Below are positions 52,401-53,169 of a DNA stretch of 64,000 bases, in pieces (the stretch's first letter is position 1; each line of letters starts with the position of its first letter). The notes beneath the pieces are model-generated. The model saw only the letters and a program-made list of their open reading frames with translations. It was not told where the DNA came from and searched no databases. The DNA comes from Eledone cirrhosa (lineage: Eukaryota), in assembly GCA_964016885.1 (NCBI GenBank), contig OZ024742.1, positions 39,618,001-39,682,000 of the forward strand, given 5' to 3'. A program made the translations under genes and the position numbers.

Positions 52401-53018
52401 TAAGGTTAACTTAGCCTTTCATCGTTACGGGGTCAATAAAATAAAGTATCAGTTCAATTCTAAAGAGGGGACAGTCTATTCTTCTTCTATGTCTCTTTCT
52501 CACCCCCCCCCCCTTTTCTCTTTATATTTCTTTGGAAGAAATTGGATGTGGTCTAACCTGGAGATGGATGAGCTTCACCACATTTAAATGCCCTAGTCAT
52601 GCCGTATGAGAAGATTGGATCATCCCTCTTTGAACATAAGTCCATGGACTTCCAATGACCATAAAACAAGGACCCAGATAGATCACTTAGCGATTGGGCC
52701 TGAACGGAGAGTACCCTGTTTTCCAAATATTATTGTATATCGAGGCGCCGATGTCAGCAGCGACAACTACTTAGTCATTACCAAAATTTAGATCAAACTG
52801 AAGCAGAACAGAACACCATTACCCAGGACACCATATCACCAAGCGAGTTCGAGGCAGTTCTTCAAAACATGTTCTATTCCTTAGAAGCCACTCCACCAGG
52901 TACATAAGAATGGTAGGGAAGCCTAAAGGAAAACAATGACAACTGGTGAAGAAATACTGGGGTACAAATAGCCCATCAGGGAAATAAAGGATTAGTGACA
53001 ACACCTGGCGACTACTAC
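52401..53018 (-). repeat. Near-identical inverted duplication of 48112-48727
   Basis: Ends match exactly (TAAGGTTAACTTAGCC and CCTGGCGACTACTAC). ORFs 48339..48524(-) and 52606..52791(+) translate identically. I saw only about one substitution and a G-run length difference. Confidence 0.95.
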
Positions 53019-53169
53019 GAAATATATATAATGAAATAAATATGGTTTTATAAATATAGTTTTCCATTTATTTAATATTGTAAATATACTCCAAATATTT
53101 GTCGAGTGCTTTTATATCAGTTATAAATATTTACTAGTTGTAACCCAACAATTTTAAATATAACTTTAC
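53019..53169 (+). mobile_element. PLE pLTR 3' fragment starting at the hammerhead GAAA
   Basis: GAAATATATATAATGAAATAAATATGGTTTTATAAATATAG.. is homologous to the reverse of 21862-22015 and ends in (TA)n. Confidence 0.8.

Follow-up and report, generated by a model that had tools for sequence, protein, structure and literature searches.

This locus raises the question of how a truncated retroelement came to be joined to an inverted copy of DNA from its own neighbourhood. The window, that is the whole stretch of 64,000 nt analysed from the Eledone cirrhosa contig OZ024742.1, supplies all positions given here, and its relevant features are collected in Table 1. The original prediction described the structure as (TA)n, the reverse complement of 48112-48727, the 3' fragment of a Penelope-like element (PLE) and again (TA)n, and alignment and self-BLAST bore out this order. 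The copy is 99.5% identical to the reverse complement of the donor over 618 columns, the two differing only by one substitution (53000 vs 48130) and in a stretch of C that measures 11 nt in the copy (52503-52513) compared to 9 nt in the donor (48617-48625). Both ends of the insertion lie within (TA)n, and the element fragment adjoins the copy without a gap and without a TA run between them. At the outer end, the last TA of the left run doubles as the terminal TA of the donor, as predicted for a copy that stops at a TA matching the (TA)n target; TA makes up 7.9% of the dinucleotide starts in non-microsatellite DNA upstream, so that such a 2-nt overlap has a chance of ~8%. The inverted arms are separated by 3673 nt, and the donor lies 3.7-4.3 kb away on the element's 5' side. 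Among 10 inverted pairs of at least 100 nt within 17000-64000, copy and donor, the putative dsRNA-forming pair of the original prediction, form the longest and closest.

Table 1. Features of the insertion and of its donor (window coordinates)
Feature	Position	Strand	Remarks
Donor segment, RTE endonuclease remnant and SINE-containing repeat	48112..48727	+	older sequence continues on both sides
RTE endonuclease remnant within donor	about 48116-48520	-	sequence matches
SINE-containing repeat within donor	about 48520-48727		sequence matches
Left (TA)n run with few TG units, target on element's 5' side	52161..52402	.	242 nt
TA overlap between TA run and donor's outer end	52401..52402	.	2 nt; alignment; putative priming site
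Inverted copy of 48112-48727	52401..53018	-	618 nt; 1 substitution (53000) and 2 extra nt in C run; alignment and self-BLAST
5'-truncated 3' end of young Penelope-like family, long-tail 'B' arm	53018..53170	+	153 nt; only GAAA half of hammerhead core
Right (TA)n run, target on element's 3' side	53171..53254 (end about 53254)	.	

The copied segment is a chimera of two older repeats. Among the 40 of 1677 candidates that were scored, query positions 3-208 matched a SINE-containing repeat elsewhere at ~72%, and positions 210-614 matched an RTE endonuclease remnant elsewhere at no more than 77%. A 32-mer spanning the SINE/RTE join was found at exactly two sites of the 3.0-Gb assembly (up to 2 mismatches), namely in the donor and in the copy. 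Independent insertion and a multicopy chimera are therefore excluded; the segment is locus-specific, its near-identity does not stem from independent insertions, both as predicted, and no further copy of the chimera turned up. The donor is considered the original because older sequence flanks both of its ends, the RTE relative at locus L008 has the donor's letter at the substituted site, and contigs of the sequencing runs X2 and X3 are identical to the donor region over 47610-48710 (1101 nt). Elsewhere in the window, an RTE-type element that has kept its endonuclease and RT frames fairly intact (41882-44450) and two long tandem satellites (1-9297 and 12006-16661, the second with a unit of ~59 nt) were observed.

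The element fragment belongs to an abundant family. A 41-mer from its tail is matched exactly 4951 times in forward and 5034 times in reverse orientation in the genome, and the tail is identical to those of 18 of 147 comparable arms, which assigns it to the youngest subfamily. Longer family copies contain a single ORF with RT and, C-terminally, a GIY-YIG-like nuclease; the copy at L334 has an open frame of 615 aa with the motifs YRDD and IVY...YVG. Its nearest Atlas clusters scored 0.95-0.98, some of their members carrying RVT_1 and GIY-YIG, and a Pfam search returned no match for the element protein. In comparison with the description of Hydra-clade PLEs in the available part of PMC8557442, the DKT motif, the CxCx5C linker, and CxxC and CxH are present and CCHH is absent from the nuclease. 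The N-terminal RWK motif is not seen in the 615-aa frame of L334, a copy whose 5' truncation falls 24 residues ahead of DKT. Judged by these motifs, the family is a Penelope-like element (EN+), putatively of the Hydra clade. A putative hammerhead core, the (TA)n target, a 5'-truncated partner in inverted orientation and a one-sided tail are further points of resemblance; the tail of ~90 nt differs from the 30-40 bp stated there for PLEs generally. The hammerhead core (CUGANGA...GAAA) and its flanking stems were recognized by eye upstream of GAAA in 30/30 loci. Rfam gave no hammerhead match in the terminal repeat of the family, and the MFE fold of this repeat differs from the hammerhead fold (z 0.01).

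Insertion of the family into (TA)n was observed. In a set unfiltered for TA, each of the 30 loci terminates in a TA run at either of two positions, ~62 or ~150 nt past GAAA; the later arm survey admitted only arms ending in a TA run. In the window, an older relative of the same family forms a head-to-head fold-back pair with the same short and long ends (21860-22200), and further head-to-head fold-back pairs with hammerhead-like cores are located at 39896-39982 and 57966-58312. At L090, a SINE fragment lies within the TA-rich stem of the hammerhead, with a short direct repeat on both flanks, and at L111 a whole SINE adjoins the 5' side of an arm and shares its orientation.

The usual anatomy of these insertions shows what the locus lacks. 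At the fetched loci, 337 of 470 distinct arms have an antisense partner from the family attached head-to-head, and 296 of 303 typed arm-partner calls combine a short end with a long end (a pair was counted from each side when both arms lie in a locus). The two partners of 74 pairs differ by 1.0% on average, compared to 5.2% between the same arms and a reference copy, and this points to a single template molecule for both arms. The window locus has the long-end arm alone; where a short-end arm would be expected, it has the local copy. According to the accessible text of PMC8557442, PLEs are known to have an inverted repeat with a tail at one end, which matches the short-plus-long (A+B) anatomy seen here. 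For an anole PLE in vitro, the part of PMC11167929 at hand describes two start sites, cleavage and extension of both strands, and initiation of synthesis without homology to the cut DNA.

Other templates occur in the family as well. Without an intervening TA run, the arms at L091, L150 and L209 meet antisense sequences of distant PLE families head-to-head (32-46% protein identity), and the pair L134/L293 carries non-element filler between its arms, pieces of which match another contig. RNA templates and template jumps are therefore also part of the family's repertoire. Similar head-to-head joins to the antisense of other PLE-like families, again without a TA run between, were noted at L280 and L057; all five arms possibly arose by twin priming on two different element RNAs. 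The filler at L293:1416-1585 (G000:C30) is a near-perfect 169-nt palindrome of non-element DNA between two arms, the halves of which match two separate places in contig C297, one of them a 2-kb tandem array. As a separate observation, the long arm of the family pair at L319:3739-7665 (G000:C1:52531600-52540599) was compared with L334, a natural relative, over 2777 nt; of the 210 changes, 167 are A>G. The short antisense arm, 98% identical to the long arm, shows 73 A>G. This locus looks like a retrotransposed, A-to-I hyperedited RNA that would have supplied both arms from one molecule.

Copy and element fragment are attributed to one recent event: both are young, they adjoin without a TA run, and the copy stands in for the partner arm usual in this family. 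That a single event joined a PLE end to a local inverted copy had been predicted, and it is consistent with one substitution in 616 nt and a tail found in 18 of 147 arms. We consider it about evenly balanced whether, in this event, the second cut DNA end was primed on nearby host sequence, likely by folding back, instead of on element RNA. The TA run would be cut on both strands by the element nuclease. Reverse transcription primed by the right end would stop after ~153 nt. The 3' TA of the left end, freed by more than 4 kb of resection or by local unwinding, would anneal to the TA on its own strand at 48726-48727 and be extended leftwards by 616 nt, either by a host repair polymerase or by the element's RT. 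Finally, the two new ends would be joined over 1 shared base and the gap filled. Taken from 5'-side DNA, the inverted copy begins within the TA run and leads away from the insertion point, which is the geometry that folding back requires.

Folding back is favoured by the short-plus-long pairing in 296 of 303 calls, the paired state of 337 of 470 arms, the TA overlap, the loci L146 and L113 described below, the cleavage and extension of both strands by the anole PLE, and the reciprocal-end inverted duplications of L1. It is weakened by the lack of a second long-range case in 55 arms and by the mere two clear short ones, by the joins to foreign PLEs and the filler in L134/L293, by the ~8% chance of the 2-nt TA overlap, and, by analogy, by the fact that inverted duplications of L1 are small hairpins, compared to a loop of 3.7 kb here.

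The search for comparable events covered 132 other arms without a detected partner, 55 of which had at least 4.4 kb of upstream flank; the arms were enriched by truncation patterns and listings of unpaired arms rather than drawn at random. Clear short fold-back copies of the 5' flank were found in two of the 132 (about 38 and 49 nt), on the same side and in the same orientation as in the window, the denominator being soft, as many of these arms have partner stubs below the 45-nt threshold or belong to poorly covered subfamilies. At L146, the 49-nt copy and its neighbour share two variants that occur in none of 14 other copies of the repeat, and one of these variants is mirrored inside the TA run, so that folding back of DNA took place at least over short distances. 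The palindrome at L113 is perfect and spans 94 nt around a TA run; its sequence is unique to this locus among those fetched. L030 is a possible third case, with 33 nt from ~350 nt upstream. Long-range inverted copies were absent from all 55 arms with sufficient flank; the rate is therefore near 5% of such arms at most and the event is rare, which lends no support to the predicted role of these elements as general agents of local inverted duplication over long distances.

Several further candidates for local copies were dropped. L271 proved to be a pair of another family beyond the TA run, L319, L233 and L298 are element or SINE sequence, and L325 and L160 are low-complexity or multi-copy. L253 and L153 are direct matches from tandem or repeat structure, and L194, L098, L100 and L333 represent other repeats or reach 92% identity.

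The original prediction assumed a different course, in which the first cDNA leaves the element RNA after ~153 nt, switches at 48112 to minus-strand DNA or RNA, copies 616 nt and anneals to the left TA run. The resulting geometry is identical, so that priming from the other end makes the switch unnecessary, and we retain the switch as an alternative that is unlikely, though the least so among those considered. Such switches have been proposed for templated insertions of L1, with 22 among ~3,600 L1-solo insertions in the available part of bioRxiv 2024.08.27.596794, and the filler from elsewhere between the arms in L134 is in line with them. There is, however, just 1 shared base at the switch point, and the second end, which usually makes its own arm, would be left idle. 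Furthermore, a switching cDNA could copy either flank in either orientation, whereas the clear cases (the window, L146 and L113) are all inverted and from the 5' side.

Nor does the start of the fragment point to a stop of the first cDNA. It had been placed exactly at the hammerhead GAAA (53019), and this is true to within 1 nt, as base 53018 (C) is compatible with both donor and element; the same C run precedes 17 of the 18 identical family tails. Arms starting at GAAA numbered only 56 by pattern, 17 of them being small internal duplications. Estimated truncations per position are about 19 at GAAA compared to 14, 47, 18 and 20 at four other positions, rates that are rough since they combine pattern counts, assumed sensitivities and different subfamily denominators. 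The hammerhead cut, which we presume to follow the usual layout, would fall ~12 nt 3' of the junction. Stalling or cleavage at the hammerhead was rejected as the cause of the junction because GAAA is no truncation hotspot and the predicted cleavage lies further 3'. The start position is incidental, given the ordinary rates, the preceding base shared with the copy and the distance to the cut, and the weight originally given to the GAAA is not sustained.

Likewise unlikely is a variant in which the element's RT primed the second end on a nascent plus-strand host transcript, that is by twin priming on host RNA and not on DNA. The second end does accept foreign PLE templates (L091, L150 and L209), the anole PLE initiates synthesis with no homology to the cut DNA (PMC11167929, in the part available), and one L1 insertion with co-inserted nearby pre-mRNA is described in the accessible section of PMC10191854. 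On the other hand, no host exon was recognized by eye in the 213 open frames of 17000-64000, and the mirrored variant in the TA run of L146 shows that DNA folds back, at least over short distances.

Two independent events, namely an inverted duplication templated by repair of a break within the TA run and a separate insertion of the element next to it, appear very improbable. TA runs gather many insertions, and a control on the 3' side yielded 31 arms with a local repeat match just past the 3' TA run, mostly multi-copy repeats or microsatellite. Against two events stand the missing TA run between copy and element in a family that targets (TA)n, the equally young age of both parts, and the arm without its usual partner.

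The read evidence bears on the integrity of the assembly. Contigs (X1-X4) and RAD reads (X5, X6) were compared with the copy (X3, X1, X5, X6) and the donor (X2, X3, X4, X5), the RAD reads and X1 falling outside the unique part of either. The contigs show the donor alone, a pattern compatible with both presence and absence of the copy. In X2 and X3, which stem from one sample, one contig passes the donor's inner breakpoint unbranched; contigs of this kind drop low-depth branches, and one repeat split X4 but not X2 or X3. No spanning read or contig was listed for the junctions of the copy among the X1-X4 contigs, which lose such branches, and the X5 and X6 RAD reads. The depth of X4 is 7.0 in the fully duplicated part compared to 4.1, a weak lean to two copies (likelihoods of 0.11 for a homozygous copy, 0.085 for a heterozygous copy and 0.032 for no copy). 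An assembly artefact or long-read chimera, to which the unbranched contig and the unlisted copy junctions would fit, is the most improbable of the explanations, as the copy carries its own substitution and C-run length, its ends match a TA target and an element 5' end, contigs drop low-depth branches, and the depth of X4 weakly favours two copies.

The value of the locus is mechanistic: in the reading preferred here, with local DNA in place of the partner arm, the second end was primed separately from the first. The insertion itself is a single rare accident in repeat-filled DNA with no shown function. More tentatively, and at a probability well short of even, every insertion of the family may be two-ended, with both ends primed at two fixed RNA sites and a second end that takes any template, be it its own RNA, the RNA of another PLE or host sequence kilobases away. 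If so, the family, with its thousands of recent insertions, would steadily give rise to local inverted duplications and inter-family chimeras in the germline, and the A+B rule would account for the origin of the inverted terminal repeats and one-sided tails of PLEs, which is presented as an open question in the accessible parts of PMC8557442 and PMC11167929.

Linkage of a local inverted duplication to a PLE was not found reported in the literature searched, most subscription papers being outside its coverage. The outcome is already known from somatic L1 insertions, and the window case extends it to a germline PLE and to kilobase range. In Adineta vaga, capture of host DNA by Penelope (PMC3846280, as far as available) similarly links PLE machinery to the copying of host DNA. 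There, pLTRs enclose the captured DNA and target-site duplications are frequent, whereas the window case has one arm and a TA run, a neighbouring inverted donor, and no readable TSD in (TA)n. The templated insertions of L1 (bioRxiv 10.1101/2024.08.27.596794, in part) also copy a non-element genomic template into the insertion and thus duplicate it; they are typically shorter than 250 bp and templated within 15 bp of the site, compared to 616 nt at 3.7 kb here. Fold-backs of L1 described in the available part of PMC10191854 measure 52-220 bp (3+1 cases, 0.3-0.1%). The closest counterpart is the inverted duplication at the reciprocal end of L1 insertions, which the accessible text of bioRxiv 10.1101/2024.12.14.628481 ascribes to self-annealing after resection, with 2-bp homology (TA/AT in one case). 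It shares with the window case an inverted copy of the 5'-side flank, the preserved donor, the 2-bp overlap, and a junction with the cDNA that shows hardly any homology or none. It differs in the class of retroelement, in its origin from tumour or cultured cells as opposed to the germline, and in its small hairpin, a feature seen at L146 and L113 but not in the window, where 616 nt were copied with 3673 nt between the arms.
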